Assembly: GCA_965116595.1 (NCBI GenBank)
Contig: OZ220708.1
Span: forward strand, 1,078,875-1,142,874
Reading direction: 5' to 3'
DNA from: Arenicellales bacterium
GTDB taxonomy: Bacteria; Pseudomonadota; Gammaproteobacteria; Arenicellales; Poriferihabitantaceae
Length of the DNA stretch: 64,000 nucleotides
The position numbers were made by a program, and so were the translations under genes. Under the pieces are notes generated by a model. The model ran no database searches. It worked only from the letters and a program-made list of their open reading frames with translations, and was not told the origin of the DNA. Below, one piece after another: positions 15,751 through 45,058 of the stretch (position 1 is its first letter; each line of letters opens with the position of its first letter).

Positions 15751-15815
15751 ACGATACAACCCCCGTCGGCGAAATCCGCTCAAGTCAAATACTCTGGAAC
15801 TACGGCCCGGGAGCA

Positions 15816-17438
15816 TTGATCGAACTGCCCAACCTGTCCGTGGTCACGATGGGGACCGATCGATGGCAAAAGGACCGGTGCATACAAATCGAGGAAGCCC
15901 GACTATTGTCGGCGGTTCAAAGTGTGCTCGGTCACCAGGTGGAAAGCCTGCGCATGCCTCCGTCCAACAGAAGTGAGGACGATCATCAAAACGACGAAGT
16001 ACTGATTGGTATCCCGGTCAGACCATTTCCGCGCTGGCTGCGCTGCGTCAAATGCGGCCTGTTATCCGAGTTTGATCTCGGCCTCTTCAAGATCAGGAAG
16101 AATCGATTCCGCCCGGAGAACACGCGGTTTGTTCACGGGAACTGCAAGGGATCAAAAGGTAACCTGCCCTCCAGAGACGCGGATGCCGTGCCAGCGCGAT
16201 TCCTGTTCGCCTGCAGAAACGGTCACCTCGACGATTTTCCGTGGCGCTACTTCGTGCACAGTGGACCATCAGCCTGCACGGGCACGTTGCGATTCTTCGA
16301 GAGCGGCGCATCTCTGCAAACCGGAAATCTGTGGGTCAAATGCGACCAATGCAGTACTTCGCGCAACATGGCCCTTGCTTTCGGTAAATCCGGTGAGGAA
16401 AACCTGCCACGATGCCGCGGGCGCCACCCGCATCTCGACCACTACGACGATGATTGCAGGGAACAGGCGCGGACCGTACTGCTGGGCGCAACCAACAGTT
16501 GGTTCCCGATCACACTGTCCGCGCTGGCGATTCCGGTCTCGCGGGATCCGGTCCACCAGCTTGTCCGCAATTGTGGGGATTATTTCAAAGCGGGAATCAA
16601 GGGACCCGAGTGGGAGGCGCTGACCGATCCCGCCCCGTCCAGGGGCGGGCCACATTTCCTGAGCAAACCGGCGCCCGTGCCGACCGGATTTGAGAACCGG
16701 ATTTCCGGCATCCTGTTGCTTGAACGGTTGAGAGAAGTGAATGCGTTGCTCGGTTTCACACGGGTCGAAGCGCCAGAAGAGGGCGGTCCCGACGAGCGTC
16801 CGCTCATGGCCAGACTTTGCAGTGGAGCGCCAACATGGGTTCCCTCCGGCCAAGTGCACGGTGAAGGAATATTCATCCGTTTCGATGAAGACGCACTTCG
16901 GAAATGGGAACAACGGGACAGCGTCCGGGCGAGGGAGATTAAACTGGTATCCGGACACAAGAGCTGGCGGAACTCGCGAAAACTTGATCCCAACGAGGAC
17001 TATCCAGGTGTTCGCTACACGCTGTTGCATACGGTCGCGCACCTGCTGGTTCGTGAACTCGCTCTTGAATGCGGCTATAATTCCGCCAGCATTCGGGAAC
17101 GAATATACGCCGATAACGATAGCGAACAACCGCAGGCCGGTATTCTGGTTTACACCGCTGCCATCGACTCCGACGGCACGCTTGGCGGGCTGGTAGACCT
17201 TGGCAAACCCGAGAATCTCGGCAGACTTCTTATGCAAGCCCTGTCGCGAGCCGAAGTTTGCTCGTCAGATCCGCTCTGCGCGGAACACGAACCGGACAAA
17301 GACCGATCACTGCATGCCGCCTCCTGCCACGCATGCTCTTTCGTTTCGGAAACCTCTTGCGAACGCCAAAACCGTTACCTGGACCGTGCGCTGGTCGTCC
17401 CCACACTGGAAGTTACCGATGCGGCATTTTTCTGTTGA
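15816..17438 (+). CDS. drmB: DrmB-like DUF1998 (MrfA-type Zn-binding) protein
   Basis: 540 aa from a TTG. It has Cys clusters RWLRCVKCG, CRNGHLDDFPW and CDQCS. The C-terminal DUF1998 signature is HAASCHACSFVSETSCERQNRYLDRALV. Coding-like sequence (VGEIRSSQILWNYGPGA) continues upstream of the TTG, so the true start is probably earlier. Confidence 0.7.
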   Translation: MIELPNLSVVTMGTDRWQKDRCIQIEEARLLSAVQSVLGHQVESLRMPPSNRSEDDHQNDEVLIGIPVRPFPRWLRCVKCGLLSEFDLGLFKIRKNRFRPENTRFVHGNCKGSKGNLPSRDADAVPARFLFACRNGHLDDFPWRYFVHSGPSACTGTLRFFESGASLQTGNLWVKCDQCSTSRNMALAFGKSGEENLPRCRGRHPHLDHYDDDCREQARTVLLGATNSWFPITLSALAIPVSRDPVHQLVRNCGDYFKAGIKGPEWEALTDPAPSRGGPHFLSKPAPVPTGFENRISGILLLERLREVNALLGFTRVEAPEEGGPDERPLMARLCSGAPTWVPSGQVHGEGIFIRFDEDALRKWEQRDSVRAREIKLVSGHKSWRNSRKLDPNEDYPGVRYTLLHTVAHLLVRELALECGYNSASIRERIYADNDSEQPQAGILVYTAAIDSDGTLGGLVDLGKPENLGRLLMQALSRAEVCSSDPLCAEHEPDKDRSLHAASCHACSFVSETSCERQNRYLDRALVVPTLEVTDAAFFC

Positions 17439-21523: not shown

Positions 21524-22989
21524 TAAAAACGATCCAGTTCGGGGAAAGGCAGTTCTCCTGCATGGACATGCATGGCATTATGCTCTGCACATCTGGCAAG
21601 GGTGGGTATGGCTTTCCCCGGATTGAGTAACCTGGCCTGATCGAAGCATTCACGTACTGCATGGAATTGCCCACGCTCCTGATCGTTGAACTGGATGCAC
21701 ATTTCACCGATTTTCTCTACACCCACGCCATGCTCGCCGGTGATGGTGCCGCCCACCGCAATACACAATTGAAGAATTTCACTGCCCAGTTTTTCGGTTT
21801 TTTCCAACTCCCCGGGCTGGTTGGCGTCATAAAGAATCAGCGGATGCAGATTGCCGTCCCCCGCATGGAACACATTGGCAACCGGTAACTGATACTGCTC
21901 GGAGAGACTGTTAATTTCAGTCAGCACGTGGCCCAAAGATTTACGCGGAATAGTGCCATCGATACAATAATAATCCGGTGAAATCCGACCGACCGCAGGA
22001 AATGCGGCCTTTCTGCCTGACCAGAACAACTCTCTCTCGTGCTCATCCCTGGCAACCCGACTCTCGACAGCGCCATTTTGATCAAACATTTGTTTGACAC
22101 GCTCAATTTGATCATCCACTTCAGTCGGCGTGCCATCGAGTTCACACAACAATATCGCGCTGGCCGCGGTTGGATAACCTGCCTTGACAAAGTCTTCGGC
22201 AGCGCATATCGCCGGGTTATCCATCATTTCAATACCCGCTGGAATGATGCCATTACCGATAATGTCAGCCACGCTGTCCCCGGCATTCTTAACCGAATCG
22301 AACACCCCCATGATGACTTTCGCCGTATCCGGTATCGGCAATAATTTCACGCCCACTTCAACCACAACACCCAGCATTCCCTCGGACCCTATCATCAGTG
22401 AAAGCAGGTTGAATCCCGGATTATCCAGGCTGCATCCACCGATCTCAACAAGATCACCTTCCATGGTCGCTATCTTCAAACAGGTAATGTTGTGTAGTGT
22501 TAATCCATATTTCAAGCAGTGTACCCCACCCGCATTTTCTGCGACATTTCCACCGATGGTGCATGCGATCTGGGATGAAGGGTCCGGTGCATAATAGAGC
22601 CCGTGTTTTTTGACCGCATCAGAGATTGCAAGGTTTCGTATCCCCGGTTCAACCCTTGCAGTGCGGTTGGCCAGATCCAGCTCCAGCATCCGATTCATTT
22701 TTGCCAGACTCAGAACAATACCCTCCCTGTGGGGCAAGGCGCCCCCCGACAGACTGGTTCCACCCCCCCTGCTGACTATTGGAAGAGAGTGTTCCCTGCA
22801 GATTGCCATGGTCCGTTGAACCTGCTCAACGCTATCGGGTAATACCACCAGCTTTGGGATTTGCCTGTAGGCGCTCAGTCCATCGCACTCATAAACCCGC
22901 AACTCGGTCTTGTCTGAAACGATGGACTCCGATGGCAGGACATTTTCGAACAGTCCCCTGATTTCATTTGTGTTCATTGAAGTCGTCAA
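21523..22989 (-). CDS. glcD: glycolate oxidase subunit GlcD (FAD-linked oxidase)
   Basis: 488 aa. It has an FAD-binding PCMH domain (IVSRGGGTSLSGGALP) and a C-terminal FAD-oxidase domain (GTITGEHGVG). Confidence 0.92.
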   Translation of the reverse strand: MTTSMNTNEIRGLFENVLPSESIVSDKTELRVYECDGLSAYRQIPKLVVLPDSVEQVQRTMAICREHSLPIVSRGGGTSLSGGALPHREGIVLSLAKMNRMLELDLANRTARVEPGIRNLAISDAVKKHGLYYAPDPSSQIACTIGGNVAENAGGVHCLKYGLTLHNITCLKIATMEGDLVEIGGCSLDNPGFNLLSLMIGSEGMLGVVVEVGVKLLPIPDTAKVIMGVFDSVKNAGDSVADIIGNGIIPAGIEMMDNPAICAAEDFVKAGYPTAASAILLCELDGTPTEVDDQIERVKQMFDQNGAVESRVARDEHERELFWSGRKAAFPAVGRISPDYYCIDGTIPRKSLGHVLTEINSLSEQYQLPVANVFHAGDGNLHPLILYDANQPGELEKTEKLGSEILQLCIAVGGTITGEHGVGVEKIGEMCIQFNDQERGQFHAVRECFDQARLLNPGKAIPTLARCAEHNAMHVHAGELPFPELDRF

Positions 22990-23119
22990 GAATATTTACG
23001 TTTCCCCTGTCTTTGGTTTGTGTTTGCAGGATATAACAGGAGAGGAAGCAGAGCAAATCCCTTTCCCTGGACCACGACGAAATTTCGATGTAGGCCAGAG
23101 CCTGCCCCCAACCGTAATC

Positions 23120-23233
23120 GTAGGGGCGGGTCCCCGGCCCCCGATCAGGCCGAGGGCAGGCCTTGATCGGGGAGCGGGTCTCCGTGCCCGCCCACAGAAT
23201 CCCATAACCCGCCCCAAATTTCGTCATTCCCGC
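23120..23233. repeat. REP-like element, copy B, with a nested hairpin insertion and a half dRS3-like site
   Basis: The sequence is gtaggggcgggtcccc / 38-bp palindrome (ccccgatcaggcc...ggccttgatcgggg) / gcgggtctccgtgcccgcccac ... aaatttcgtcattcccgc. It shares modules with copies A and C. Confidence 0.5.
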
Positions 23234-23299
23234 AATAGCCTACCTTACCCTCGCGAGGAACAATCAGGTATCATAAACACCAATCCACCCTATGAAGCG

Positions 23300-24012
23300 A
23301 TGGATGGATTATCCATTCAGCGGAGACTTCCAACCATCCCGGAATCTGAATGTATTGACGAACCCGCCTCCCAGCGGCAACACAATGAAGACCGGATGCG
23401 CCGCGCCGACGCCTGGATCAAGCGCAGCAAGCAGGATGATACGGAAGACATCGAGCGCTTCATGTTTTTCTGGGTTGCTTTCAATGCGGCCTATGGCAAT
23501 GAGGCGGCACTGCGTGATTTCGTCGATGGGGAGGAAGGAAGGGAGAGCGAATCCCACTACTTCATGGTATTTCTCAAGAATATTGTGGAACAGGATGTAT
23601 CAGGCGCCTTGGAAAGAATCGTATGGGGAGAGTTCTCCGGCCCGATCCGGACAACCACTACGTGTTCCACCCCTTCTGGAAGTCGGTCTGGGACCTCAAG
23701 CCGGAACGTGACTGGAAGAGACACTTCAAGAGCGAAAAGAACAGAGTGAGGAAGGCCCTGTCGAGACGGGACGTCCTTCCCATCCTGTCGGTCGTGTTCC
23801 GCCGTCTCTATACATTGCGCAACCAGATATTCCATGGTGGCGCAACCTATCCCAGCGGCTTCGGTCGCACCCAGATCCGGGACGGAAGCCGGATCATGGC
23901 CTCCCTCGTGCCGGCGATCATCGACATCATGAAGCAAGATCTCAGCCGCGACTCAGACTCGGAAACCTGGGGAAAGGTCGCGTATCCGCGTATCAACGCT
24001 GAACCGGAATAG
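23300..24012 (+). pseudogene. HEPN-domain protein gene disrupted by a frameshift
   Basis: Two overlapping ORFs lie in different frames. One is MDGLSIQRRL...FMFFWVAFNAAYG...ERIVWGEFSGPIR. The other is ...DNHYVFHPFWKSVW...LYTLRNQIFHGGATY and carries the Rx4H HEPN motif. The frames switch at about 23640-23652, and the span of 713 nt is not a multiple of 3. Confidence 0.55.
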
Positions 24013-24254: not shown

Positions 24255-24640
24255 GTGTTGCGGCCGGGTTCCCGCTGTACTGCCTGCCTTACTCCGTTGC
24301 GTTTCCACCAGAATATCCCGATAGCCAGCTTTATCTTTTTGTCCGGCAGGTGTGGATTTTGCGGCATTCGAATTTCGCCGCGTTATCCGGTCGTCGAGAT
24401 GATCTCTGCGGTGATGGCCGTCACGCTCGGAGTCGTATATGAGCCTGACTGGCAACTTGCAGCCGTGATGGTTTTTGTCTGTACCTTGCTCACATTGAGC
24501 CTGATCGATATGGATCACCAGGTCTTGCCGGACCTGATTGTCCTGCCGCTGCTGTGGGCCGGAGTGCTGTTCATTTCCCTGTCTCTTTTTGTTGACCTGC
24601 ATTTAGCGGTATGGGGCGCGGTTGCCGGGTATCTGGCGCA
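24255..24640 (+). pseudogene. pilD: internal fragment of prepilin peptidase/N-methyltransferase
   Basis: LRPGSRCTACLTPLRFHQNIPIASFIFLSGRCGFCGIRISPRYPVVE is the PilD Cys-box region, and LIDMDHQVLPD is the first catalytic Asp motif. The first ~65 aa and the C-terminal half with the second Asp are missing. Similarity ends near 24640 (AGYLAQCLSLFVPNERF). Confidence 0.7.
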
Positions 24641-25520
24641 ATGTTTGTCTTTATTTGTGCCAAATGAACGGTTTGCGGCTCAGATCAGTGGTGATATCGG
24701 AGACATTCATGACTTGTGGCACCATCTCTATGGTAAGCTTCCTGGCCTCTTTGTATCGACTAAACCGTTATCTGAATTCGATATATCGTCCTGCAATTAT
24801 CATTTCTTTTCGCTTAAAAGACCTTGGCGAGGGGAGCGAAGTGGAAGCTATGGGCGAATTTCACCATTTGGGAGACAAACAAATTCGTTAGCGCCGACAA
24901 AACAACACAAAGGAGATATAAGAAAACTTTGGCGATCAAGACGAAAATACCAGTAGAGGATGCTCCTTGGCAGCGTCAGAATGTTTGCCGATTGCGAGTC
25001 CTGCCGCACCCTTTCCTGAACTAGGCCGGAGGTTGAAACCTCCCCAAATTTATTGATCAAGCTTCGTCTCTCTTTCCTGATGAATGGGTTTGCGGGGAGA
25101 ATATTGAAACTGGGGTTGACAGAACTGAACGGCGACCTAGTCGATGTGATCGATCATAAATTGTCGAGATCGCCAATGTAAATGATCGTCTATAGAGTCG
25201 CCTAGAGGAGTTGCCGGAATGTAGTCAACACTGGTCTCGAACTTCATTTAACCGTTATCCTTGTGCATTTATTTGTTATTTCTCAGCCTGCCAGTACAAA
25301 GTTCTGGTTGTTCAATGCTGGCTCACGTCGCCTTCGAACCGCTTACCCTGTGATACAATTTCAGGGCGAAATTATTAACACTGCCAACTAAGGAAACGTT
25401 TCTTGAAAAGGTAAGTTGTCTAACCGGAGTAACCTAGAACCAAATCGACGCGGAGATCAAATCACCAAACGCATCAGACTTGGTGATAGTTAGCCATTAA
25501 AGCAGATAAGGAGTGACACA

Positions 25521-26651
25521 TTGTACAACGATGAATTAACCGAGCAAACAATCTCCATAGACAGTCTATACTTGGACCCGAACAATCCAAGGTTTTGGGA
25601 TCAGCAGAGCCGTCGACAGATTCCTGATACCCGGGCAACAGAAGAAACAATTCAACGACGAGTCGAACAGTCCATCCGGCGCCATGATATCGAAGAGCTT
25701 CAGTTTAGCATCTTAAGGAATGGCTTCCTTCCACTAGATAGGATTGTTGTTCGTCCACTAGAGTCGCACGACGATAAATTTGTAGTAGTTGAAGGAAATC
25801 GTCGTCTTGCCGCCCTGAAGCTCTTACGAGAAAGAATCAGAGAGGGTCTTGTCGCAGAGGAAAATATTTCTGAAGAATACTTGAGTAATCTGTTAGATCA
25901 AACAAAAGAACTTTCGGTTCTAGTTTATAACGGTTCCTATTCCAATGATATTTCCTGGATTTTCCAAGGAATCAGGCATATCGGCGGAATACGGCAGTGG
26001 GAGCCGGCTCAACGCGCAAAACTAGTTGCCGACCAATTTGACAACGGTTCCTCCACCTTTACTGAAACCGGGCAAAAATTCGGACTTAGTGCCAGAGCCG
26101 TGGGACGATTGTATCGCTCCTACAAGGCTCTTGAACAAATGCGAGCGGATGATGAGTATGGCAAGAAAGCCAGAAACAACTATTTCAGTTTGTTCGAAGA
26201 AGCCTATCGAAATGCGGACGTCCGAAAGTGGCTAAATTGGGATGAAGAAGAGTATCACTTTCAGCATCTCGAAAACCTTCGTATGTTTTATGCTTGGATC
26301 TGCCAGGACGAAGAGGATGAACCAGAACAGAGACGAAGAATCCACAACCCGAAGCAAGTAAAGTGCCTAGGGACTTTGATAGCTGGCGATCATCAGGCGC
26401 TTATATCGAAAGTAGATCGCCACGAAGTTCCCATTGAAACAGCGGAAATAACTGCACTCAATGTACAACCAGCGGATTCGTGGAAGGAACGCCTATTAAA
26501 CAGCCTGGATGTGATTCGATCACTTCCAACCGAAGTGATTACAAAAAATCCTAGGGATTATGGTGAATTATTGGCGGATATGATCAGAGAAATCCAGCAG
26601 TACAAGGTTATGGCAGATGCATTGTTGGTTGGGGATGATGAATCTGAATAA
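25521..26651 (+). CDS. ParB/Srx-fold N-terminal domain protein with an HTH
   Basis: 376 aa. The TTG start lies 7 nt after AAGGAG. ISIDSLYLDPNNPRF and VVVEGNRRLAALKLL match the ParB box II GxRR motif. An HTH-like segment follows (TFTETGQKFGLSARAVGRLYRSYKAL). The gene has lower GC than its neighbours. Confidence 0.7.
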   Translation: MYNDELTEQTISIDSLYLDPNNPRFWDQQSRRQIPDTRATEETIQRRVEQSIRRHDIEELQFSILRNGFLPLDRIVVRPLESHDDKFVVVEGNRRLAALKLLRERIREGLVAEENISEEYLSNLLDQTKELSVLVYNGSYSNDISWIFQGIRHIGGIRQWEPAQRAKLVADQFDNGSSTFTETGQKFGLSARAVGRLYRSYKALEQMRADDEYGKKARNNYFSLFEEAYRNADVRKWLNWDEEEYHFQHLENLRMFYAWICQDEEDEPEQRRRIHNPKQVKCLGTLIAGDHQALISKVDRHEVPIETAEITALNVQPADSWKERLLNSLDVIRSLPTEVITKNPRDYGELLADMIREIQQYKVMADALLVGDDESE

Positions 26652-27516
26652 TTCGAGTCGGACTTTTTTGATTTCCAAGTTGGTTCCGTGCGTGGTCTCT
26701 CCCTCCGCACCAAAAGTCTTGAATTTGTTTGACGCGTTTATAGCTCATGTGAGTGAGGAGAAGAAATGGGGGCCCATTCGCTCCACTGAATTTGTGACAA
26801 AGCATTTCGGCCATTTGTGTGATTTATTAGAGAGGCATTTTAGTGATTGGGATGTGCAAGGAATTCCTCGACCGATCGCGCAAACTGACCAAGAACGTGT
26901 ATTTGTTGCGTGGCCACACGAACAATTTCGACGCTTTTCCGGTTTGGAGGAAACCATTGATAGGAATTTCTGCGAAGTATTCGAGTTTATTCAAAGCTTG
27001 AGCGGGAGGCCATTCCTGATAATTTGCGCATTATGGCTAAAGTGTATGAAGTTTCGAACAATTTACATAAGTGATGCAAAAGGGGATGAAGGAGTAGACT
27101 TGCTTGGCCTGCTTGATCAAGGTGGGCTACGGGCGTTGATTGCTGTTGTTCAGGCTAAAACCTCAAACGAGGCAGTAACAAAAGGCACAGTGATGGCGGA
27201 GTACGGAAAGTACAAGTCCCTCATTCATACCGAAAAGTATATGGAATACCGTAAAGCCTTGGATATCGATGGTAGTATTCAGGGCAGCACATGGACTTAC
27301 GTCATTATGGCGAATCAAGCGTTTAATGGCCCAGCTCGTGTGGCCGCGCGTCAATTGGGGATACTGCTGCGGTCCCTTCATCAGATTAGTTTTGACATAG
27401 CGAAAGAATATACAAAGAGTCAGATTGAGTCCGAAGTAAATAGGATAGTGAACGCGGAAGAGGGTGCGCCGAGAGTGGACTTGACGACAAACTTTTATAA
27501 TCAACTGAGGATATAG
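26617..27516 (+). CDS. Mrr-cat (PD-(D/E)xK) restriction endonuclease-like protein
   Basis: 299 aa. The nuclease core is ISDAKGDEGVDLLGL...ALIAVVQAKTSNEAVTKGTV (D...D...QxK). It overlaps the upstream stop. ATGs at 26617, 26635 and 26638 are all possible starts. Confidence 0.7.
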   Translation: MHCWLGMMNLNNSSRTFLISKLVPCVVSPSAPKVLNLFDAFIAHVSEEKKWGPIRSTEFVTKHFGHLCDLLERHFSDWDVQGIPRPIAQTDQERVFVAWPHEQFRRFSGLEETIDRNFCEVFEFIQSLSGRPFLIICALWLKCMKFRTIYISDAKGDEGVDLLGLLDQGGLRALIAVVQAKTSNEAVTKGTVMAEYGKYKSLIHTEKYMEYRKALDIDGSIQGSTWTYVIMANQAFNGPARVAARQLGILLRSLHQISFDIAKEYTKSQIESEVNRIVNAEEGAPRVDLTTNFYNQLRI

Positions 27517-28187: not shown

Positions 28188-29144
28188 ATGACGCCTAACC
28201 AGTTGCAGAGTCTGTTCGCCAATCTCAAGGTTTGGCACGTGCAAGGATGGCGGGCTCCAAACAAGCCCTTACTTGCATTATGGGCGATTGGGCGGTGTCT
28301 ACGGAACGAGGCGCGTCTGGTGCCATACGATGAGATCGCCCATGAACTGGGGGGCTTGCTGCGTCGTTTCGGGCCACCGCGTAAGCGCGTAAACCCGGAC
28401 TTGCCATTCTGGCATCTACAGCACGATGGTGTCTGGGAAGTACCGGAGGCCGGCCGTATCACTCAGACACTGAGCGGCCACGCGCATATCGCCTCATTGC
28501 GTCGGGAAGGGGCGCGGGGCGGATTGCCAGCTGATGTGTTTCTGTCGCTTCAGCAGGATAGAGTAACGGCACTCGACATTGCGTATTCACTGCTCGACGC
28601 CCACTTTCCGGATACCCTGCATATTGACATACTGCGCGCGGTTGGGATTGACACTGGGTATGTGGCACCCGGTGTGTCGGATGTCGGCATCCAGGGAAGA
28701 CAAGGAATCGGACAGGACTTCAAGCAAGTTCGGCGCAGGTTGCGTGATCCGGCGTTCTCCAAGGCGGTTCTGGGCGCATATGGCGAACGGTGCGCCGTAT
28801 GCGCCTTCTCCGTTCGCCTGCATGGTGTGCCGGTGGCGCTGGATGCAGCGCATATCAGGTGGCACCGGGCTGGTGGCCGTGACCGAGACAAGGTAAGCAA
28901 TGGGCTTTCGCTATGTGCCTTGCATCATCGGCTATTCGATGCCGGTGCATTCACGCTCTCGCCGAGTTATACGGTCGTTATTGCGACTGCAGCGGTGGGC
29001 CCCGGTGCAGACCGAACCCTTGAGAAGTTTTCGCACTGCTCGATCCTACTGCCCGAAAACACGGAAGACTATCCAGATTTGAGATCCTTGAAATGGCATC
29101 ACCGCGAAGTCTTCGGTCCCGTCATTGAGAGCGTCGACTATTAG
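28188..29144 (+). CDS. phosphorothioate-DNA-sensing restriction endonuclease (SBD + HNH, SprMcrA/ScoMcrA-like)
   Basis: 318 aa. The N-terminus WRAPNKPLLALWAIGR...RVNPDLPFWHLQHDGVWEV matches my recollection of the sulfur-binding domain family. The C-terminal HNH region is CAVCAF...LDAAHIRWHRAGG...NGLSLCALHHRLFDAGAF. Confidence 0.7.
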   Translation: MTPNQLQSLFANLKVWHVQGWRAPNKPLLALWAIGRCLRNEARLVPYDEIAHELGGLLRRFGPPRKRVNPDLPFWHLQHDGVWEVPEAGRITQTLSGHAHIASLRREGARGGLPADVFLSLQQDRVTALDIAYSLLDAHFPDTLHIDILRAVGIDTGYVAPGVSDVGIQGRQGIGQDFKQVRRRLRDPAFSKAVLGAYGERCAVCAFSVRLHGVPVALDAAHIRWHRAGGRDRDKVSNGLSLCALHHRLFDAGAFTLSPSYTVVIATAAVGPGADRTLEKFSHCSILLPENTEDYPDLRSLKWHHREVFGPVIESVDY

Positions 29145-29735
29145 GTAGGAGTCTGGCGGCTTCCCTTCATCCCGCAGGCACTCGTCCCCACCGGAACCAA
29201 GCCGGAGGGATTTCTGCGCTTTCCTACCTTCACGCTCGGAACGACCCAAGAATTACTAGGCACACAGGGTAGCCACAAGTACGCTGTCGGCCCTCGGCGA
29301 CAAGTCGATTTGCACACGAATTCGTCTTCTCGGTAGCAGATCGATGTAATAGTCCTTCACGTATTCCAAGCGCAGGAACTGGATATCGGACGGTCGGCAA
29401 CGTGTCAATGTCCGTTCGTGCCGTCGCGCGGAATTATGGAGATGACGGGTAACCGCAGGAATTCGAGTTGAGTCTATTACAATGATATATTGATCCGCCG
29501 CTCCGGATACGAACCAGTCTTCCCGCCTCGTCTAGGAACCGTGTTAAGACTAGGTGGAAGTGAGCATTCCCAAGTGCAGATTGTGCACAGTTGATACCGA
29601 AGACGGAGAATAGAGAAGTCTCAAGGTTCAGAGTGACAAACGCCTACGGTCAACGTAGGTCTAAGGTTCTATGGGTTTAAATTTTATTTGACTTCCAAAC
29701 AGACTTCCATTAACTTCCATCAAAGGAAGAAAGCC

Positions 29736-30824
29736 ATGAGCAATTTCTATTCATTTTCAGCAATTCGAGGGATGCAAGCAGGTCATCCATATTACACAGT
29801 GATGATTCCGCTATGTCAGGTACCGCGAATTTTCAGTTTTGACGATGAGACATTACCGCCAGACCTGCGAACCCAGCGTGTGCTCTCGAAGGCTCGGGTT
29901 CCCCAGATCGCCGACTACCTGTCGACGAACTGGGATAATTACATTCTTTCATCGCTCTGCGCGTCGGTGGATGGAGACCTGAATTTCAAGTCGGCGTCCG
30001 ATGATCTCTCGTTGCGCAATGTGGGAATTCTAACCATTTCCATGGACGCTCGCATTCTCCTGAACGACGGACAGCATCGCCGTGCCGCAATCGAAGAGGC
30101 ACTCAAGACGAGGCCTGAACTTGAAAATGAGACTATTTCCGTTGTGCTGTTCGCTGATCGCGGACTGGGGCGCTGTCAGCAAATGTTCGCCGATCTCAAC
30201 AAAAACGCGGTGCGTCCGTCTGGCTCACTGAACGTCCTCTTCGATCACCGCAATCCCCTGGCTCGTCTGTCGGCGCATGTCCTGAGCGAGGTTGAGTTTT
30301 TCAGGCGCTTCACCGATTTAGAACGCAGTTCCATCCCGAACCGGGGGACGGCTCTCTATACGCTTTCCAGCCTCAACCGCGCCAATGAATGGCTCGCAGG
30401 GAAGACCGCAGACCGCTTTGGCGAAGACACTCCCGCACTCGCGGCGGCCTATTGGGGTGCGCTCTACCAAGCAATGATCGACTGGCAGCGCCTTGATGCG
30501 GGGTCCTTAAAATCCTGCGATCTGCGTCAAGCGACGGTCCACGCCCATGGCGTGTTGCTGCAGTCCTTCGGACTCCTTGGTAGACGTCTCCTAGCCGAAA
30601 AGCCGAAATCGTGGCGCAAATACCTTTCAAGCCTCAAATCCTTGGACTGGTCGCGCCGGAATGCCGATCTCTGGGAGGGTCGAGTGATGAATAGCGCGCG
30701 GATGAACGGCCAAAAGCGGGCGGTCCTGCTCGGCGCCAATGTACTCTGCCAAACTGTTGGTCTGCCCCTCGACGAGCGGGGTCGCCAAGCCGAGTCGAGC
30801 TTTGGTGAAAAGGAGGCTGCGTAA
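29736..30824 (+). CDS. dndB: DNA phosphorothioation regulator/associated protein DndB
   Basis: It carries the DGQHR-domain signature LLNDGQHRRAAIEEA. I chose the ATG at 29736 (preceded by AAGGAAG) over the upstream TTG in the ORF track. Confidence 0.9.
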   Translation: MSNFYSFSAIRGMQAGHPYYTVMIPLCQVPRIFSFDDETLPPDLRTQRVLSKARVPQIADYLSTNWDNYILSSLCASVDGDLNFKSASDDLSLRNVGILTISMDARILLNDGQHRRAAIEEALKTRPELENETISVVLFADRGLGRCQQMFADLNKNAVRPSGSLNVLFDHRNPLARLSAHVLSEVEFFRRFTDLERSSIPNRGTALYTLSSLNRANEWLAGKTADRFGEDTPALAAAYWGALYQAMIDWQRLDAGSLKSCDLRQATVHAHGVLLQSFGLLGRRLLAEKPKSWRKYLSSLKSLDWSRRNADLWEGRVMNSARMNGQKRAVLLGANVLCQTVGLPLDERGRQAESSFGEKEAA

Positions 30825-30825
30825 G

Positions 30826-32268
30826 TTGGCGACCTTGATTGACGACTTTGATTCGACATCCGAATCCGAAGTTCCCGGCCGCTCCATTATGGACATCGTA
30901 GAAGAAGTCCGCTGGCTCTATGGCAGCGATGACCGCCCTTGGGTGATCGGTTATAGTGGCGGCAAGGATTCGACCTGTGCACTGCAACTCATCTGGTCGG
31001 CCTTGTCAGGATTGCCGAAGAAAAAGAGAAAGAAGCAGGTATATGTCTTGAGCTCCGACACACTGGTCGAGACGCCTGTCATCGTCGACTATATCGATAA
31101 TACGATCTCCAACATCAACGCAGCTGCCAAGGCGCAATCGATCCCAGTTGAGGCACACAAGGTGGTACCGGATATTTCCGACAGTTTCTGGGTTAACTTG
31201 CTGGGACGCGGCTACCCGGCTCCATCCAAACGATTTCGTTGGTGCACAGAGCGGCTAAAGATTGATCCTGCAAATGCGTTCATCAAAGAGAAAGTGGCAG
31301 AGTTCGGCGAGGTCGTCATGGTGCTGGGTGTACGCCGCGCCGAAAGCGCAACCCGCGCCCAAGTTATGTCACTTCATCGGATCAAGAACAGCGTTCTCTC
31401 CCGCCATACGACATTGCTCGGTGCCTATGTATATACGCCAATTGAAGCATTTAGTACTGATGATGTATGGAGCTATTTACTCCAGAACAGTAATCCGTGG
31501 GGCGGAGACAATCGCCATCTCCTCGCAATGTATCGGAATGCCCAAGCGGGCGAGTGCCCACTCGTGGTGGATAAGAACACTGAAAGCTGCGGCAACTCCA
31601 GATTCGGTTGTTGGGTCTGCACTGTGGTCACGAAGGACAAGGCCATGGAGGCTATGATCGACAATGGCGAGACATGGCTAGAACCTTTGCTTGACCTTAG
31701 AGATGAACTCGCGGCTACCCAAGACCCGTCGGAGAAGTCGAAAGTCCGCGATTTCCGACGGCGGAACGGAAGTGTGACCTTTAAGGCTGGCAGCAATGAG
31801 ATGATCCCGGGACCCTACCGGATATCCTTCCGAAAGAGCTTCCTGAAGAAACTTCTGGAAGCGCAAATGGAGGTGAACCGGAACGCTCCGCCAGGAGAAA
31901 AGACAATACTCATTCATGATGCAGAACTTCTGGAAATCCAGCGCCTTTGGCGATCCGAAGCTGGCGATTGGGACGACACTATCGCAACTCTTGTGCACGA
32001 GGTTCTCGGCCGTGAGTTGCCCATCGAAGACGACGGCGCTTACAAGTTCAACGGCGAAGACGGTGCAATCCTGGAAGAGGTGTGCGAGGAATATTGTGTG
32101 CCGCCGGCACTCCTTGCTCAACTCTTGGAGGTTGAACGATCCGTCCGTGGTTTGAAACGTCGAGCCGCCGTCCACCAGAAGATCGGCGCAGTGATGGAGC
32201 GCGAGTGGCGCGCTGAGGACGACGTGATCTCCGAGCGTAATATAAGGATGCGAAAAGGTGCGTCATGA
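30826..32268 (+). CDS. dndC: DNA phosphorothioation protein DndC (PAPS-reductase-like ATP pyrophosphatase, Fe-S)
   Basis: It has the PP-loop WVIGYSGGKDST and the Cys cluster CGNSRFGCWVC. The start is set to TTG 30826, which lies 9 nt after AGGAGG and 2 nt after the dndB stop. GTG 30805 and ATG 30889 are alternatives; the track ORF begins at 30739. Confidence 0.92.
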   Translation: MATLIDDFDSTSESEVPGRSIMDIVEEVRWLYGSDDRPWVIGYSGGKDSTCALQLIWSALSGLPKKKRKKQVYVLSSDTLVETPVIVDYIDNTISNINAAAKAQSIPVEAHKVVPDISDSFWVNLLGRGYPAPSKRFRWCTERLKIDPANAFIKEKVAEFGEVVMVLGVRRAESATRAQVMSLHRIKNSVLSRHTTLLGAYVYTPIEAFSTDDVWSYLLQNSNPWGGDNRHLLAMYRNAQAGECPLVVDKNTESCGNSRFGCWVCTVVTKDKAMEAMIDNGETWLEPLLDLRDELAATQDPSEKSKVRDFRRRNGSVTFKAGSNEMIPGPYRISFRKSFLKKLLEAQMEVNRNAPPGEKTILIHDAELLEIQRLWRSEAGDWDDTIATLVHEVLGRELPIEDDGAYKFNGEDGAILEEVCEEYCVPPALLAQLLEVERSVRGLKRRAAVHQKIGAVMEREWRAEDDVISERNIRMRKGAS

Positions 32269-34208
32269 TCCTCGAGACGCTGACTCTCAATAATTTTGGC
32301 CTGTACGGCGGCGAGTATCAGTTCAATCTGTCTCCGGCCACCGATGACGAACGCCCCGTGATCCTCGTACTCGGTCACAATGGCGGTGGCAAGACGACTT
32401 TCCTCGAGGCGGTTCGACTCGCCCTCTACGGCAAGCGCGCCCTTGGCGCTCGGGTGGCGCGCTCCGACTATGAAGCCTATCTCCTGCGGCGCATTCATAT
32501 TCTCGCTGAAGAACGGGCCGCCTCTGTGACATTGTCGTTTTCGCGCCATGAAGAAGGGCGTACTGTGCATTATGAAGTTCAGCGTGCTTGGGCGGCACGC
32601 GACACATCAGTCATTGATTCCATCGAACTCACCTGCGACGGCATGCTGGTCAATGACATTCCACCCGAGGATTGGGATCATTATTTAGAAGATATGATCC
32701 CGTCGGGTATCTCGCAGCTCTTCTTCTTCGACGGCGAGAAAATCCAGGACATCGCTGACGACACCTCCACGGATGGGGTGAGAGATTCAATCCGTTCCCT
32801 TCTTGGCCTAGACCTGATTGATCAACTCCGCAGTGACCTTGCGCTTTATACCGCGCGACGGAATCCATCAAGGGCAAATGTGGACCTCGAAGCGATTGAG
32901 CGCGATTTGAAGGCGGCAAAGACAGAGCTTGTCGTCCTGGAAGAAAATGCAGCCCAGGACCGCGCCGACCGTGGCCGGGCCGATCGGCAGATCGCTAAAG
33001 CGCAAATGGCGTTTAACACCGAGGGTGGGGCCGCCGCGCTGGACCGGACTGGGCTGAAACAGACCTTGCAAGAAGTGGAGAAGCGGATCGACTGGTTGCA
33101 AAGCGATTTAAAACGTCTCGCCGAGAGCACGTTGCCTCTCGGTCTTGCCCCGAATCTGTTGGGTCGATTGAACGACGTTGTTTCCCAACGTGGTTTTTCA
33201 GCCAGTACAGAGGCGATTGGGGAGTTCCTCGACGCTTTTCAGTCCAGCGACAGAACCAAGGCGTCAAAGCGACCGTATTGGACCAAGAGCCATTTCTCAG
33301 CCCTAAGTGCATTCCTCGACGAGGCTTGCGATGATTCTGACGACATCACGCTCGACGCAGATCCGGCCTGGGTCAAGAACCGAATCGATGTGATCGATAT
33401 GGGTTTGAGGGGCCAAGCGGCTGATCTTGGCAGAGAGTTTGATGCGGCGCGGCACCGCCAAGCATGGCTTAAGAAACAGCTACGGAACTTCGATGAGAAC
33501 GCGGCGCACGAGACTCTCGAGATCCTGAGGACGGCCGAATATGAGCGTGGGCGTGCCGAGGCGCAACTGATGGAAAAGGAAAAGGCAATCTCAAGTCTGC
33601 GTTACCGGATCGGTCAACTTGAAAAAGAGCGGGACCGCGCGCTTGATGTGGAACTCGACACAGCGCTGGCGTTTCACAAGATCGATCTAGGCGAACGCGC
33701 TAGAGCCGCCCTTGCGGTCTATGAGTCTCGTGTCCTCGAACGGCGGATTGTTTCGCTTTCCAAGCATTTCGTGGAGTGTTTTAATGGGCTGATCCGGAAG
33801 AAACGGCTTCTCAGCAGTGTGCAGATCGATCCGAACACGTTCGACATCACGCTTATCGGGGCCGAAAGCGTCGAAATCCCCAAAGAGGCGTTGTCGGCAG
33901 GTGAGCGGCAGATCTTCGCGATCTCCATGCTTTGGGCGCTTGGCAAGACCTCGGGGCGCGATTTGCCAATGATTATCGACACGCCTCTGTCACGGCTCGA
34001 TCAGGCGCACCGGAAATCTCTTATGCGCGATTACGTGCCCGTGGCGAGCCGGCAGATAATCCTTTTGTGTACCGATAGCGAGTTGACGCCGGATCTCGAT
34101 AAACTGATCTCGCCCTTCGTGGCTCGCCGCTATGAGATCGGCGTTTCCCTGAGCGATCATCGAACCCACATAACGCCACACTCGCCGGATGTAGTAAATG
34201 CACATTAG
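32265..34208 (+). CDS. dndD: DNA phosphorothioation protein DndD (SMC/ABC-like ATPase)
   Basis: 647 aa. It has Walker A LGHNGGGKTT, a long coiled-coil middle, the signature LSAGERQIFAISML and Walker B PMIIDTPLSRLD. An ATGA overlap joins it to dndC. Confidence 0.9.
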   Translation: MILETLTLNNFGLYGGEYQFNLSPATDDERPVILVLGHNGGGKTTFLEAVRLALYGKRALGARVARSDYEAYLLRRIHILAEERAASVTLSFSRHEEGRTVHYEVQRAWAARDTSVIDSIELTCDGMLVNDIPPEDWDHYLEDMIPSGISQLFFFDGEKIQDIADDTSTDGVRDSIRSLLGLDLIDQLRSDLALYTARRNPSRANVDLEAIERDLKAAKTELVVLEENAAQDRADRGRADRQIAKAQMAFNTEGGAAALDRTGLKQTLQEVEKRIDWLQSDLKRLAESTLPLGLAPNLLGRLNDVVSQRGFSASTEAIGEFLDAFQSSDRTKASKRPYWTKSHFSALSAFLDEACDDSDDITLDADPAWVKNRIDVIDMGLRGQAADLGREFDAARHRQAWLKKQLRNFDENAAHETLEILRTAEYERGRAEAQLMEKEKAISSLRYRIGQLEKERDRALDVELDTALAFHKIDLGERARAALAVYESRVLERRIVSLSKHFVECFNGLIRKKRLLSSVQIDPNTFDITLIGAESVEIPKEALSAGERQIFAISMLWALGKTSGRDLPMIIDTPLSRLDQAHRKSLMRDYVPVASRQIILLCTDSELTPDLDKLISPFVARRYEIGVSLSDHRTHITPHSPDVVNAH

Positions 34209-34575
34209 CAAGTTTCGCGTGTCCAGTGAGGCGACCAGCCGCCTGCGCGTACTGCGTCAGCGAGCAGCGCTTACGCCTAACCTCCTTTGCCGTATGGCCA
34301 TGGCTATGTCTTTCGAGATGGGCAAGGTCGGTCCGGCCTCGGAGATCGAGGAAGGTCAGGAGTTCAACGCCTATACGCTTTTCGGCGGAGACCAGCCGAT
34401 CTACATCACGCTGCTAAGATGGGTGGAAACCGAAGACGGGGAAGAGGTCGATGACCGAGAATTAGTCCTCCGTTTGCGTACACATATTGATCGGGGTCTG
34501 TCAGCAATTTTTACGCGGGTGAAGTCTCCGGGTGACGCCGCACGGCTCTTGGCAGGAGATTCGGCAGCCCGATGA
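34198..34575 (+). CDS. dndE: DNA phosphorothioation protein DndE
   Basis: 125 aa. It sits between dndD and the cysteine desulfurase gene and overlaps both neighbours. The N-terminus is FRVSSEATSRLRVLRQRAALTPNLLCRMA. Confidence 0.85.
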   Translation: MHISKFRVSSEATSRLRVLRQRAALTPNLLCRMAMAMSFEMGKVGPASEIEEGQEFNAYTLFGGDQPIYITLLRWVETEDGEEVDDRELVLRLRTHIDRGLSAIFTRVKSPGDAARLLAGDSAAR

Positions 34576-35738
34576 CCAGCCCGGTCTATCTCGATCACAA
34601 CGCTTCGACACCAATGGACTCCGTCGTCATCGACGTGATGACGGAGGCCATTCGCACCCATTTTGCCAATCCGTCGAGCGGTGAACATGCGGCTGGTGCT
34701 GCCGCCTCTCAGGCAGTCGAACATGCTCGGGGAACCATCGCAAAGGCCATCGGCGCCCGTCCGACGGAGATCATCTTCTGCAGTGGATCAACGGAAGCGA
34801 ACAATTTGGCACTCATGGGGGCATTCCCTGATTTGAAGGCAAAAGGAAAGACCCAAATCATTACCTCCGCCATTGAACACCCGTCGGTCATGGAACCACT
34901 AAGGCAGCTCGAGGCTGTAGAAGACGCGGAGATCGTCCGTGTGGCGGTAGGTGAAGATGGTCGGGTGTCCCCAGGTGCAATCGAAGAAGTCCTAGGCAAG
35001 AACACCGGCCTGGTAACTATCATGGCAGCGAACAACGAGACCGGGATTCTCCAACCCATCGATCAGATTGGCGCCCTCTGTACAGAGCGCAATATCCTAT
35101 TCCATACGGACTATTCGCAGGCTACCGCCTACCGTGCGCTCGATGTCCTAGCAGCCAATGTTCATCTTGCGAGTTTCTCTGGGCACAAAATGTACGGGCC
35201 GAAGGGCATCGGGATCCTTTATCGGCGCTTACGAAAACCGCGCGTGGAAATCACGTCCATCATTCACGGCGGCGGCCAGGAGCGAGGCCTACGATCAGGC
35301 ACCTTGAATACGCCAGCGATTGTCGCTTTGGGGGCAGCGTTTGAACAAGTCATCCGGTTTCGCGCTAAGGATGTGGAGACCATTGCGGAACGACGTGATG
35401 AACTCGTTGATGGATTGCTCCAGATTGGGGGAGTCTACACAAACGGTGACCGCGCCCAGGTCTTGCCGAACACGGTTTCGCTTTCGGTGGAAGACATCGA
35501 ACCGCTAGCATTGATGCGTTTGTTGAAGAATGAAGTCGTATTCTCCGCATCGAGTGCATGTTCAACGGACCGCATAGAAACGTCTCACGTGCTGAAGTGT
35601 ATGCTTGGCGACACGCTGCGGGCGCGTCAGGCATTTCGATTGGGTCTTGGGCGCGGTACCACCGATGCGGATATTGAGCGGGCAGTCTCCGCGTTCACGT
35701 GGGGCGTCACCCGACTTCGATCAGGACGCTTAACCTGA
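34572..35738 (+). CDS. dndA: cysteine desulfurase DndA (NifS/IscS-like)
   Basis: 388 aa. It reads VYLDHNASTP, SGHKMYGPKGIG (PLP lysine) and SASSACS (catalytic Cys loop). Confidence 0.9.
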   Translation: MTSPVYLDHNASTPMDSVVIDVMTEAIRTHFANPSSGEHAAGAAASQAVEHARGTIAKAIGARPTEIIFCSGSTEANNLALMGAFPDLKAKGKTQIITSAIEHPSVMEPLRQLEAVEDAEIVRVAVGEDGRVSPGAIEEVLGKNTGLVTIMAANNETGILQPIDQIGALCTERNILFHTDYSQATAYRALDVLAANVHLASFSGHKMYGPKGIGILYRRLRKPRVEITSIIHGGGQERGLRSGTLNTPAIVALGAAFEQVIRFRAKDVETIAERRDELVDGLLQIGGVYTNGDRAQVLPNTVSLSVEDIEPLALMRLLKNEVVFSASSACSTDRIETSHVLKCMLGDTLRARQAFRLGLGRGTTDADIERAVSAFTWGVTRLRSGRLT

Positions 35739-36212
35739 AACGGTGTCGTCGCCAGACCGCCAAAGATCGGCATAGGCAACGAGGAATTCATCGACGCTGC
35801 GGGGTCCACCCATGGCGTCCCGGAGGATTTCGAACCCTTTAGCTGCGTAACGGTTCATGAACCTTACCCCGTCCTCGCTCAGACCCAAAGGAGAGCGAGG
35901 GTCGAGCAGTTTGACGGTCTCCTTCTCGATTAGATCGCGGTTATTCGAATCGAGCTTGCGCCTGCGGATTTCCGCCTCAACTAAGAGCCCGAGCAGGTAA
36001 CTGTCATAGGCTTGGTAGGCCTCTGGATACTTCGCGCCAGCCGCAATGAAAGGCTGCATAAACTGGGAGTCGCTCGCCATCTGACCAGCGCGAAGCCCCA
36101 GCATGAGGCATGAGTAGAATTTGTCGATGTCCAGGAACCGAACACCTTTAATCGAGTGATCATGGATCTTGGAAAAAAACGCGTCCGCGTCTTCGGTCAA
36201 CCGGAGGCTCAT
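35730..36212 (-). CDS. hypothetical protein, last gene of the convergent 4-gene module (PbeD-like position)
   Basis: 160 aa with no motif I recognise. Its start overlaps the upstream stop by 4 nt, and its 3' end overlaps the dndA stop by 9 nt. Confidence 0.6.
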   Translation of the reverse strand: MSLRLTEDADAFFSKIHDHSIKGVRFLDIDKFYSCLMLGLRAGQMASDSQFMQPFIAAGAKYPEAYQAYDSYLLGLLVEAEIRRRKLDSNNRDLIEKETVKLLDPRSPLGLSEDGVRFMNRYAAKGFEILRDAMGGPRSVDEFLVAYADLWRSGDDTVSG

Positions 36213-38161: not shown

Positions 38162-38333
38162 CTGTGCGATCCCCAACATCGATTTGGTCCAAAAGATCGT
38201 GAATGTCGGATGGATCGAGATTGTCGAGCATCGCATTCTCGATAAGTGCCGCTAACGCATTCTTATAAGTCTCGTCCATACCGTCTTCGTTGCAAACGAC
38301 CTCGACCGCCTCGCGGACTGCTTTGTCGATCAT
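38151..38333 (-). CDS. small acidic protein (PbeB-like position)
   Basis: 60 aa: MIDKAVREAVEVVCNEDGMDETYKNALAALIENAMLDNLDPSDIHDLLDQIDVGDRTDED. GGAGG lies ~10 nt upstream of its ATG, and it overlaps the next gene's start by 11 nt. Confidence 0.5.
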   Translation of the reverse strand: MIDKAVREAVEVVCNEDGMDETYKNALAALIENAMLDNLDPSDIHDLLDQIDVGDRTDED

Positions 38334-45050: not shown

Positions 45051-45058
45051 GCCACCTC

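Follow-up and report, generated by a model that had tools for sequence, protein, structure and literature searches.

A conserved gene pair encoding a ParB-like protein and an Mrr/MspJI-type nuclease, with a lineage tied to DNA phosphorothioation genes

What is the role of a cassette of low guanine-cytosine (GC) content that consists of two overlapping genes, one for a ParB-like protein and the other for an Mrr-type nuclease, and that lies close to the genes for DNA phosphorothioation (dnd)? The question is raised by a stretch of 64,000 nucleotides (nt) from an Arenicellales bacterium (GTDB lineage Bacteria; Pseudomonadota; Gammaproteobacteria; Arenicellales; Poriferihabitantaceae; NCBI GenBank assembly GCA_965116595.1, contig OZ220708.1, positions 1,078,875 to 1,142,874 of the forward strand), which is referred to here as the window and supplies all coordinates except those of other named loci. 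In the list of open reading frames (ORFs), gene A (25521-26651, + strand, stop codon at 26649-26651) encodes a protein of 376 amino acids (aa), and gene B follows on the same strand with 26617-27516 as its longest ORF. An earlier reading of the letters and ORFs, made without database searches (the sequence-only reading), had proposed the two as a candidate undescribed defence pair; both ORFs lie where it placed them, and the motifs that it quoted, LDPNNPRF, GDEGVDLLG and VVQAK, are all present. The answer that we favour, at slightly better than an even chance, is that A and B form a two-protein restriction-type module that was recruited, in the clade of the window, to the Dnd system as an extra restriction arm sparing sulfur-marked DNA.

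The pairing itself is the firmest part of this answer. Homologues were gathered from 80 loci of species-representative genomes and three of metagenomes, which gave 82 unique loci (numbered L001 and upward); ORFs were called in the fetched loci and searched with iteratively built hidden Markov models (HMMs) of the two window proteins, gene B being surveyed next to gene A only. A homologue of gene B lies on the same strand within 150 nt downstream of the gene A stop codon in 73 of the 82 loci, usually with an overlap of 3-7 nt, and within 1.4 kb of gene A in 75, so the pairing read from one genome holds in others. The seven loci without gene B include one contig end, one truncated gene A and two in which a DGQHR protein flanks A. 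When all neighbourhoods were clustered against each other, only A (81 loci) and B (68 loci) were common across the set, the next in frequency being Dnd proteins at 10-23 loci each. The pairwise identities of A rise and fall with those of B (r = 0.89, Mantel p = 0.001), protein B evolving faster (mean identity 21% vs 36% for protein A). The closest relative, L001, shares 88% amino-acid identity in A and 74% in B, and the ratio of nonsynonymous to synonymous substitution rates (dN/dS) between it and the window comes to 0.064 in gene A and 0.092 in gene B, which marks them as real genes under purifying selection. The two are obligately paired and co-diverging.

Protein A had been read as ParB-like, with a GxRR box and a helix-turn-helix (HTH), and the predicted structure agrees. 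An AlphaFold2 model built on 34 homologues (predicted local distance difference test, pLDDT, 81) is matched by Foldseek to ParB, KorB and Noc, the best solved-structure matches, at E-values of 3e-6 to 3e-4 and probability 1.0, in alignments that span the N-terminal domain and the HTH. By this model, protein A is ParB/KorB/Noc-like and has three parts: an N-terminal domain with the predicted ParB-CTPase fold, an HTH in the middle and a C-terminal domain made of helices. Sequence libraries see this likeness faintly: Pfam returns a sub-threshold GmrSD_N match (E 0.048; 14.2 bits, where the cut-off is 33.2) and does not list ParB_N for the window protein at E ≤ 0.1, PF02195 annotations on its homologues are mostly weak or faint, and the NCBIfam parB_part match reaches 27.2 of the 58.45 bits required, with RepB and Noc matches likewise sub-threshold. 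In an exhaustive profile search of 1.84 billion representative proteins, 348 relatives of protein A passed E ≤ 1e-30 and 1,423 passed E ≤ 1e-10. With few exceptions their length is about 360-390 aa, there are no fusions, and the family, with about 350 representatives at 50% identity, occurs in many bacterial phyla and some archaea.

Two motifs of the N-terminal domain are close to invariant. LDPNNPRF occupies residues 18-25 and VVEGNRRLAALKLL residues 89-102. Within the first, DPNNPRF (25575-25595, + strand, residues 19-25) resembles the ParB NPxQPR element; D19, N22, P23 and R24 are present in 69 of 69 full-length paired homologues and are invariant in alignment A1 of the window's clade. From the model DPNNPRF would be the equivalent of NPxQPR, an assignment that the sequence aligner did not confirm. 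The second, EGNRR (25791-25805, + strand, residues 91-95), has E91, G92, N93 and R95 in 69 of 69 homologues and R94 in 68. The family profile aligns 'IEELRNSILRNGFL..IVVRP...VVEGNRRLAAL' with 'LEDLSNSIREKGVL..ILVRP...IVAGERRWRAA' of Caulobacter ParB, and because EGNRR thereby falls on AGERR, it corresponds to the ParB box II (GxRR) phosphate-binding motif. The nucleotide that would be bound is a separate matter, as neither sequence nor AlphaFold3 models predict nucleotide specificity in the ParB-CTPase fold (PMC12704722). The HTH segment (26004-26144, + strand, about residues 162-208, with model helices at 162-175, 180-187 and 191-208) falls within the ParB/KorB/Noc structural alignments, and within the window's clade (alignment A1) its G184, F187, G188, G195, R196, Y198 and R199 do not vary. 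The helical C-terminal domain (26349-26648, + strand, about residues 277-376) is modelled as long helices over 277-374; its roughly 100 residues are the least conserved part of alignment A1, and it is a candidate region for dimerisation or partner binding.

Such a protein could be a partition or nucleoid-organising ParB with gene B as an unrelated neighbour, as the ParB/Noc/KorB-like fold and the weak NCBIfam parB_part and Noc hits would have it. Those scores are far below their cut-offs (27 vs 58 bits), however, and no ParA gene is near, the neighbours being a peptidase remnant, gene B, a gene for an SBD-HNH endonuclease and dnd genes. At E ≤ 1e-10, homologues of protein A were found in none of 72,556 plasmids and none of 50,697 phage genomes. 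Protein A is also located in variable islands and is obligately paired and co-diverging with a nuclease, and this explanation is effectively excluded by the pairing statistics. The sequence-only reading was right that parA is missing, and protein A does not fall into any known family with a non-defence role.

Protein B had been called an Mrr-type nuclease, and this identification stands. Pfam Mrr_cat (PF04471) matches residues 125-194 at 23.6 bits, above the gathering score of 21, and Foldseek matches the AlphaFold2 model (pLDDT 92) to the nuclease domains of MspJI (E 5e-5), AspBHI, AF1548 and EndoMS. GDEGVDLLG...VVQAKT of protein B aligns with GDGGVDFIG...GQAKC of MspJI. As judged from these alignments, protein B is an Mrr/MspJI-type PD-(D/E)xK nuclease with an intact D...D...QxK site. 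The catalytic core (27082-27159, + strand) comprises G156-D157-E158-G159-V160-D161 and Q179-A180-K181 in the numbering of the 299-aa ORF; among 69 homologues, 68 have D or E at 157, 68 have D161, 68 have Q179 and 67 have K181, so that the positions (D/E)157/G159/D161/Q179/K181 range from 67 to 69. An active DNase is expected from this conservation.

In front of the nuclease domain lies an N-terminal domain of about 115 aa (26638-26988, + strand) with the motif WDxQG(I/V)PRP...W.H and a predicted topology of a1-b1-a2-a3-b2-b3 in the AlphaFold2 model, from which topology only it may be labelled winged-helix-like. An HMM of this domain detects protein B only in loci of the dnd-linked clade described below. 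A Pfam search with the N-terminal 118 aa of 16 homologues gave no match at E ≤ 10 beyond scattered single hits, and a PDB sequence search with the domain gave no significant match (best E 0.015); HARE-HTH, Mrr_N and SBD were considered as identities and set aside, as the Pfam and PDB searches gave no sequence evidence for them.

The link to phosphorothioation rests on the phylogeny of protein A. In a rough neighbour-joining tree, midpoint-rooted, the dnd-linked loci form one clade of 26 loci that contains the window. With linkage defined as at least two dnd gene families within 10 kb, 22 of these 26 loci are linked against 2 of the 56 outside (L028 and L080, which look like independent associations), counts that are not phylogenetically independent; among further metagenome loci of the clade, three of four are dnd-linked by precomputed Pfam annotation. 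The dnd-linked clade extends over at least eight phyla or classes, among them Acidobacteriota, Verrucomicrobiota, Gemmatimonadota, Chloroflexota, Alpha- and Gammaproteobacteria, Bacillota and Cyanobacteria, and the linkage is retained across many gene orders. The order dndC-D-E(-A)-A-B forms a single operon in L003; dndC-D-[dndE::HerA/FtsK fusion]-A-B is found in L001, L022 and L080; pbeA-(B)-C-D-A-B stands beside a divergent dndBCDE in L005, L028 and L085; and A-B is divergent from dndB in L086 and L087. In Colwellia (L024, with a 30-nt gap) and Alishewanella (L025) the order is dndF-dndG-dndH-A-B, where DndG and DndH are confirmed against the solved DptG and DptH chains (E 5e-100 and 2e-176). 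The pair is often embedded in a dnd or dndFGH operon, where the gaps measure 5-35 nt. A low-GC A-B cassette, 10-15 GC points below its surroundings in both places, is common to the window and L001 (79.5% nt identity); their dnd contexts differ. The window's lineage of the pair is thus specifically tied to the dnd phosphorothioation genes, more tightly than by mere location in an island. The sequence-only reading had placed the pair in a defence island and had missed this dnd-specific tie of the lineage.

Several observations weigh against the proposed recruitment to Dnd. Dnd loci attract many unrelated nucleases (PMC10853773), and adjacency alone could therefore be island clustering. Four loci of the clade have no dnd genes nearby, one of them being a 2-kb contig only. 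Outside the clade, 54 of 56 loci carry the pair without dnd among heterogeneous, often housekeeping neighbours; the phosphorothioate (PT) mark therefore cannot be the ancestral cue, and for these dnd-free loci defence is only a possible role. The window has three other candidate restriction arms near dnd, namely SBD-HNH, PbeABCD and, farther off, DrmAB. L020 and L027 have A without B, next to a DGQHR protein. There is also a biochemical concern. The Glu of GERR and the Gln of NPxQPR are the catalytic residues of Myxococcus ParB, with which the PDB titles for its Q52A and E93A mutants (the latter 7o0n) are consistent. Protein A has Asn where the GERR box has Glu, and for this reason hydrolysis of nucleoside triphosphates (NTPs) by protein A may be slow or absent. 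The Asn of DPNNPRF, like that of box II, probably also occupies a position that is catalytic in ParB, going by the model; here again the sequence aligner did not confirm the match.

The first of these concerns, taken to its end, gives a rival explanation that we consider rather unlikely: the pair would be a stand-alone Type IV-like (modification-dependent) or autonomous restriction system, placed beside dnd by island clustering and making no use of the PT mark. It draws on the nuclease domain of protein B, which is closest to the modification-dependent MspJI and AspBHI, on the distant B homologues that match the PADLOC Type IV mREase_IV models, on the lack of any conserved third gene or conserved methyltransferase at the 54 of 56 loci outside the dnd clade, and on the analogy of GmrSD and BrxU as autonomous relatives of DndI and SspE (PMC12065111). 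Such a system has to be set against a dnd linkage that is clade-wide (22/26) and survives rearrangement across phyla, against the frequent placement of the pair inside a dnd/dndFGH operon with gaps of 5-35 nt, against the occurrence of the same low-GC cassette next to dnd in two different arrangements, and against a B N-terminal domain that is specific to the dnd-linked clade.

At the 56 distant loci, protein A is about 30-40% identical and protein B is about 245-290 aa long. Their neighbours are a few DNA methyltransferases, AAA_21/AAA_15 ATPases, integrases, resolvases and many housekeeping genes, and in four Anaerolineae the pair lies within an ABC-transporter cluster. These heterogeneous, dnd-free neighbourhoods indicate that the ancestral unit was self-contained and mobile. 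A link to MADS was suspected for the Anaerolineae block (L043, L049, L058, L064) and abandoned, as the block is housekeeping synteny by Pfam (ABC transporter, molybdopterin oxidoreductase, NUDIX); the PADLOC mad2 and mad3 models match 4 and 3 of 130 neighbour proteins.

A mobile unit of this kind could also be a selfish addiction (toxin-antitoxin-like) cassette, in which B would be a toxic nuclease, A would neutralise it and repress the operon through its HTH, and defence would come about through abortive infection. We regard this as improbable. The compact, overlapping two-gene cassette has an anomalous GC content and moves between genomes, it is inserted in housekeeping operons of some Anaerolineae, and pseudogenised copies of the pair are known at L026, L061 and L079, all of which an addiction module would accommodate; yet protein A, at about 370 aa and with a strictly conserved NTP-binding motif, is unlike typical antitoxins, A is found without B in L020 and L027 (B having been surveyed only next to A), and homologues are missing from plasmids and phages, where addiction modules are common. 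At L026 (10001-11505, Dryocola sp. BD586) the pair is decaying: A is cut short at 312 aa and two pieces remain of B, each about 140 aa long, and the neighbouring dndEDC look intact.

The exceptional loci without B bring in a further possibility. In L017 (8202-9967), L020 (5539-7304) and L027 (8237-9987), from Pseudomonas huaxiensis, P. serbiensis and Erwinia persicina, the genes directly upstream of A encode two proteins of 170 aa and 415 aa, the larger being a DGQHR protein that is DndB-like but distinct. B is absent from two of these three loci, which suggests that protein A can work with a different partner. The pair might serve modification, with A as a DndB-like regulator or a loading factor for DndCDE and B nicking or processing DNA for access. 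DndB is itself a member of the ParB superfamily and regulates PT levels (PMC4507180, PMC10853773), dndB is missing from the fetched span beside the pair in L001, L003 and L022, and a DGQHR (DndB-like) protein precedes A in the three loci just named. We nevertheless find a modification role improbable: canonical dndB is also present in most dnd-linked loci, the window included, A has no profile similarity to DndB, many genomes have the pair without dnd genes nearby, and the DNase site, intact and conserved universally, is what one more typically sees in an effector. Paralogy of A to DndB was considered directly and rejected, since hhalign of the A family against the window DndB gave a probability of 0.1% and the NCBIfam DGQHR models miss A.

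Under the favoured reading, a restriction module recruited to Dnd, the pair would work as follows. Protein A would be a ParB-fold NTP-binding protein that acts as a DNA sensor or loader, with an N-terminal switch, an HTH and perhaps a dimerising C-terminal domain, and protein B, a PD-(D/E)xK DNase of Mrr/MspJI type that carries an additional N-terminal domain, would act as the effector. The two would interact physically, A binding or hydrolysing NTP and B cutting DNA. The ancestral pair would have been a self-contained mobile cassette, later recruited to Dnd loci in the window's clade, where it would spare sulfur-marked host DNA and cut unmarked incoming DNA. Restriction of phages or plasmids with the PT mark as cue is what we infer for the module, its defence function being read from gene context. 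The proposal that a nucleotide switch is coupled to a nuclease effector, made from the sequence, fits the predicted folds and the invariant motifs. In DndI and SspE a ParB-like NTPase domain reads the PT mark and gates the nuclease, and A-B would then be a split counterpart of these effectors. By analogy, the candidate PT reader is either protein A, as in DUF262 domains, or the clade-specific N-terminal domain of protein B, as in SBD-type winged helices.

ParB, KorB and Noc are CTP-dependent sliding DNA clamps, where CTP is cytidine triphosphate. Because these clamps are the nearest structural relatives of protein A, a scanning model is attractive, in which A would be an NTP-gated sliding clamp that searches DNA for PT, read by A or by the clade-specific B N-terminal domain: a mark would trigger hydrolysis and release, and on unmarked DNA the clamp would persist and license cutting by B. 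In this detailed form the model is a speculative one, and we would not expect it to be right.

How far is such a module already known? In DndI of Salmonella Cerro 87 (IscS-DndBCDE-DndI; PDB 9JFL), an NTPase of the ParB superfamily (DUF262) is joined to an HNH nuclease, and the ATPase responds to PT marks; the dndI gene follows dndFGH, and DndI avoids self-cleavage via PT marks (PMC11662687). Toxicity in a host with inactive dndC is reported for DndI. DndI and SspE together represent PT-sensing effectors made of a ParB-superfamily NTPase and a nuclease (PMC11662687, PMC13251355). A-B resembles DndI in combining a putative NTPase of this superfamily with a nuclease encoded beside dndBCDE, and it takes the same slot in Colwellia and Alishewanella. 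The difference is that DndI is a single polypeptide that joins DUF262 (DGQQR) to a DUF1524 HNH nickase, whereas A-B consists of two proteins, one with an EGNRR ParB-type domain and HTH and the other with a PD-(D/E)xK nuclease. Sequence similarity of A to DndI is not detectable, and a PDB sequence search with A gave no 9JFL or SspE hit. SspE (of SspABCD-SspE) and GmrSD/BrxU are alike in that a ParB-like NTPase sensor gates a nuclease, and the division between autonomous GmrSD/BrxU and PT-recruited SspE (PMC13251355, PMC12065111) parallels that between the dnd-free and dnd-linked clades of A-B; these proteins have a fused DUF262-DUF1524 (HNH), whereas A-B is split and has another ParB subfamily, an HTH like that of true ParB and a nuclease of another superfamily. 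Among the hallmarks of DndI/SspE/GmrSD, A-B thus lacks DUF262 and the fused DUF1524 HNH but has the genomic coupling to dnd.

The ParB/KorB/Noc clamps share with protein A the structure of an N-terminal NTP-binding domain followed by an HTH, and the box II GxRR alignment. Protein A differs in having no ParA/parS context, in its sub-threshold scores, in the Asn for the Glu of GERR, in a different C-terminal domain, in an insert of about 30 residues after the N-terminal motif and in its obligate nuclease partner. Protein B has the Mrr_cat core, the D...QxK motif and the MspJI-like fold in common with Mrr, MspJI and AspBHI, but carries neither an Mrr_N winged helix nor SRA-like readers; it has instead its own unclassified N-terminal domain and a separate ParB-like partner.

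Among defence models, PADLOC matches protein A with PDC-M38A (E 3e-49), from a candidate system, and PD-Lambda-5_A (E 1.5e-19), from a system found by experiment, in both cases over the ParB-like N-terminal part only. Membership of PDC-M38 is rejected: of the 715 positions of the PDC-M38A profile the window protein covers 8-263, and its relatives reach about 365-367, which is half of the profile, and the PADLOC models that B matches are PDC-S02 and mREase_IV, none of them from PDC-M38. No paper mentioning PDC-M38 was found in the literature. PD-Lambda-5 is described as a compact restriction-modification and abortive-infection (RM+Abi) system, with a methyltransferase as its best domain match (PMC9519451). 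It too is set aside, since A matches only the first 160-200 positions of PD-Lambda-5_A profiles that mostly have 430-610; A has no methyltransferase hit in Pfam, and B has no PD-Lambda-5_B hit in PADLOC. In Pfam, NCBIfam and PADLOC no entry names either protein or the pair. A reappraisal of Dnd neighbourhoods by Rakesh et al. (2024) lists HKD, SBD-HNH, HARE-HTH-REase, NERD and URI nucleases and mentions ParB only as DndB (PMC10853773); protein B could possibly belong to its 'HARE-HTH + REase' class, for whose HARE-HTH part a Pfam search gave no evidence in the sequence. No nuclease-partnered, dnd-linked family is described in a survey of the ParB-CTPase fold from 2025 (PMC12704722), and a non-exhaustive literature search found no description of a ParB + Mrr defence pair or of a dnd-linked ParB/REase pair. 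The claim of an undescribed pair consequently survives in part: no Pfam, NCBIfam or PADLOC system covers the pair, but DndI, SspE and GmrSD have already established the underlying design, in which an NTPase of the ParB superfamily gates a nuclease and which is in some cases linked to PT, and PDC-M38A shares the ParB-like half.

The restriction partners known in PT-based immunity are DndFGH, DndI, SspE, SspFGH and PbeABCD. If the reading proposed here is true, the pair adds a widespread partner that is built from a canonical ParB-type switch and not from DUF262. PT systems, DndI and DndFGH among them, also pose the puzzle of how self-protection is achieved with only 10-15% of sites modified. 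The clamp version, if true, would provide the first immune scanner based on a ParB clamp and a concrete answer to this puzzle of sparse marking. In either case, the pair extends the ParB-CTPase fold, whose roles outside segregation are just being catalogued (PMC12704722), to an obligate nuclease partnership. There is a practical consequence for annotation as well. As Pfam, NCBIfam and PADLOC v2 leave both genes unnamed, Dnd loci that have only this pair (for instance L003 and L022) would score as modification-only.

Gene A has a TTG start codon located 7 nt downstream of an AAGGAG ribosome-binding site at 25508-25513. Gene B can be read from ATG 26617 (299 aa) or from ATG 26638 (292 aa); the N-termini of its homologues, MN(L/P)(N/S)..., align at the latter (MNLNN...), which is likely the true start. 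With starts at 26638 or 26617 and the gene A stop at 26649-26651, gene B begins 14-35 nt inside the 3' end of gene A, in agreement with the overlap read from the sequence. GC content is 0.44-0.47 across 24500-27500 and 0.55-0.60 in both flanks, so that the compositionally distinct block described earlier is real. Upstream, DNA homology to L001 starts at 25441 (79.5% over 2083 nt) and includes a leader (25441-25520, + strand) that contains the AAGGAG and has the conserved core AAACGCATCAGA-CTTGGTGA in the alignment of the two. A promoter or operator presumably lies within this leader; a sigma-70 consensus was looked for in it and not found, and promoter and terminator scans gave nothing informative. 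An 8-bp inverted repeat 5' of gene A, ATCACCAA/TTGGTGAT, was considered as a parS-like palindrome and dismissed, its left arm not being conserved in L001.

Repeats flanking the cassette, as a sign of a mobile element, were sought and none was convincing. The ORF at 24255-24956 (+ strand) is the remnant of a prepilin peptidase, matching only A24_N positions 24-81 and Peptidase_A24 positions 1-59 and then continuing as unrelated sequence. Within this ORF, at about 24500, begins the fall in GC content by which the cassette stands out, and the remnant may mark an insertion scar. Before it, the ORFs at 22910-23749 and 23623-24012 (+ strand), which overlap in different frames, look like one frameshifted gene (about 23300-24012). 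The second of them contains LRNQIFH, an Rx4H motif typical of HEPN RNases; family libraries gave no match.

Between the pair and dndB stands the gene for an SBD-HNH phosphorothioate-DNA-binding restriction endonuclease (28188-29144, + strand; NCBIfam NF045808, E 1.2e-77, 260.9 bits against a cut-off of 180), a family described as targeting PT-DNA, here encoded next to the PT genes of the host itself. Its orthologue in L001 (10262-10552 and 12709-13492; 81% nt identity) lies just 3' of A-B and is interrupted by IS21 (rve + IstB). The dnd cluster follows on the + strand, with dndB (29688-30824; Pfam E 6e-117, NCBIfam TIGR03233), dndC (30739-32268; PAPS_reduct match), dndD (32265-34208; AAA_23/SMC_N match), dndE (34198-34575; DndE HMM match) and dndA (34572-35738; Aminotran_5 match). 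Convergent with dndA is a PbeABCD-type module on the - strand, which comprises a PbeD-like protein of 160 aa (35730-36212), PbeC, a CxC ABC ATPase (36209-38236; PADLOC PbeC E 2e-24), and PbeA, with HKD and SF2 helicase (38360-40318; PADLOC PbeA E 1e-186); an NCBIfam dnd_restrict_1 domain is found in this module. With it so near dndA, at least three candidate restriction arms surround one dnd cluster.

Several relatives show further features of their own. A fusion of DndE to a HerA/FtsK-type ATPase (about 510-526 aa) lies upstream of A-B, within a dndC-dndD-dndE::HerA-A-B operon, in L001 (6431-7966), L022 (6162-7742) and L080 (6296-7822), directly so in L001 and L022 and with a 696-aa gene between in L080; the fetched spans have no dndB. 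A protein of about 495 aa without a Pfam hit recurs by dnd genes in unrelated genomes, at L002 (11616-13103), L010 (2186-3664) and L086 (2200-3684) and also in L013, L014 and L024, and may be a further Dnd-associated component. The metagenome relative L084 (385-4110; A 62% identical) does not adjoin canonical dndCDE. Near it are genes for another ParB_N protein, the shorter of the two at 274 aa, and for a cysteine desulfurase, an SNF2 helicase and a restriction-modification pair of BamHI/BglII type, and it may represent a different sulfur- or modification-related system.

Farther from the cassette, very strong PADLOC hits identify DISARM DrmA (1307 aa) and DrmB (540 aa, MZB/DUF1998) at 11827-17438 (+ strand), followed by a HAD hydrolase and glcDEF. 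Because these genes, and not other DISARM genes, adjoin DrmAB, the locus may be a partial or minimal DISARM. On the other side, a defence-like or mobile stretch runs over 42884-50632, with a TIR-like effector (42884-43762, - strand) and a PDC-S02 candidate (44025-45050, - strand), both defence-like, a Mutator-family transposase (46082-47314, + strand) and a UvrD/helicase IV protein with two topoisomerase-type zinc ribbons (47726-50632, - strand).

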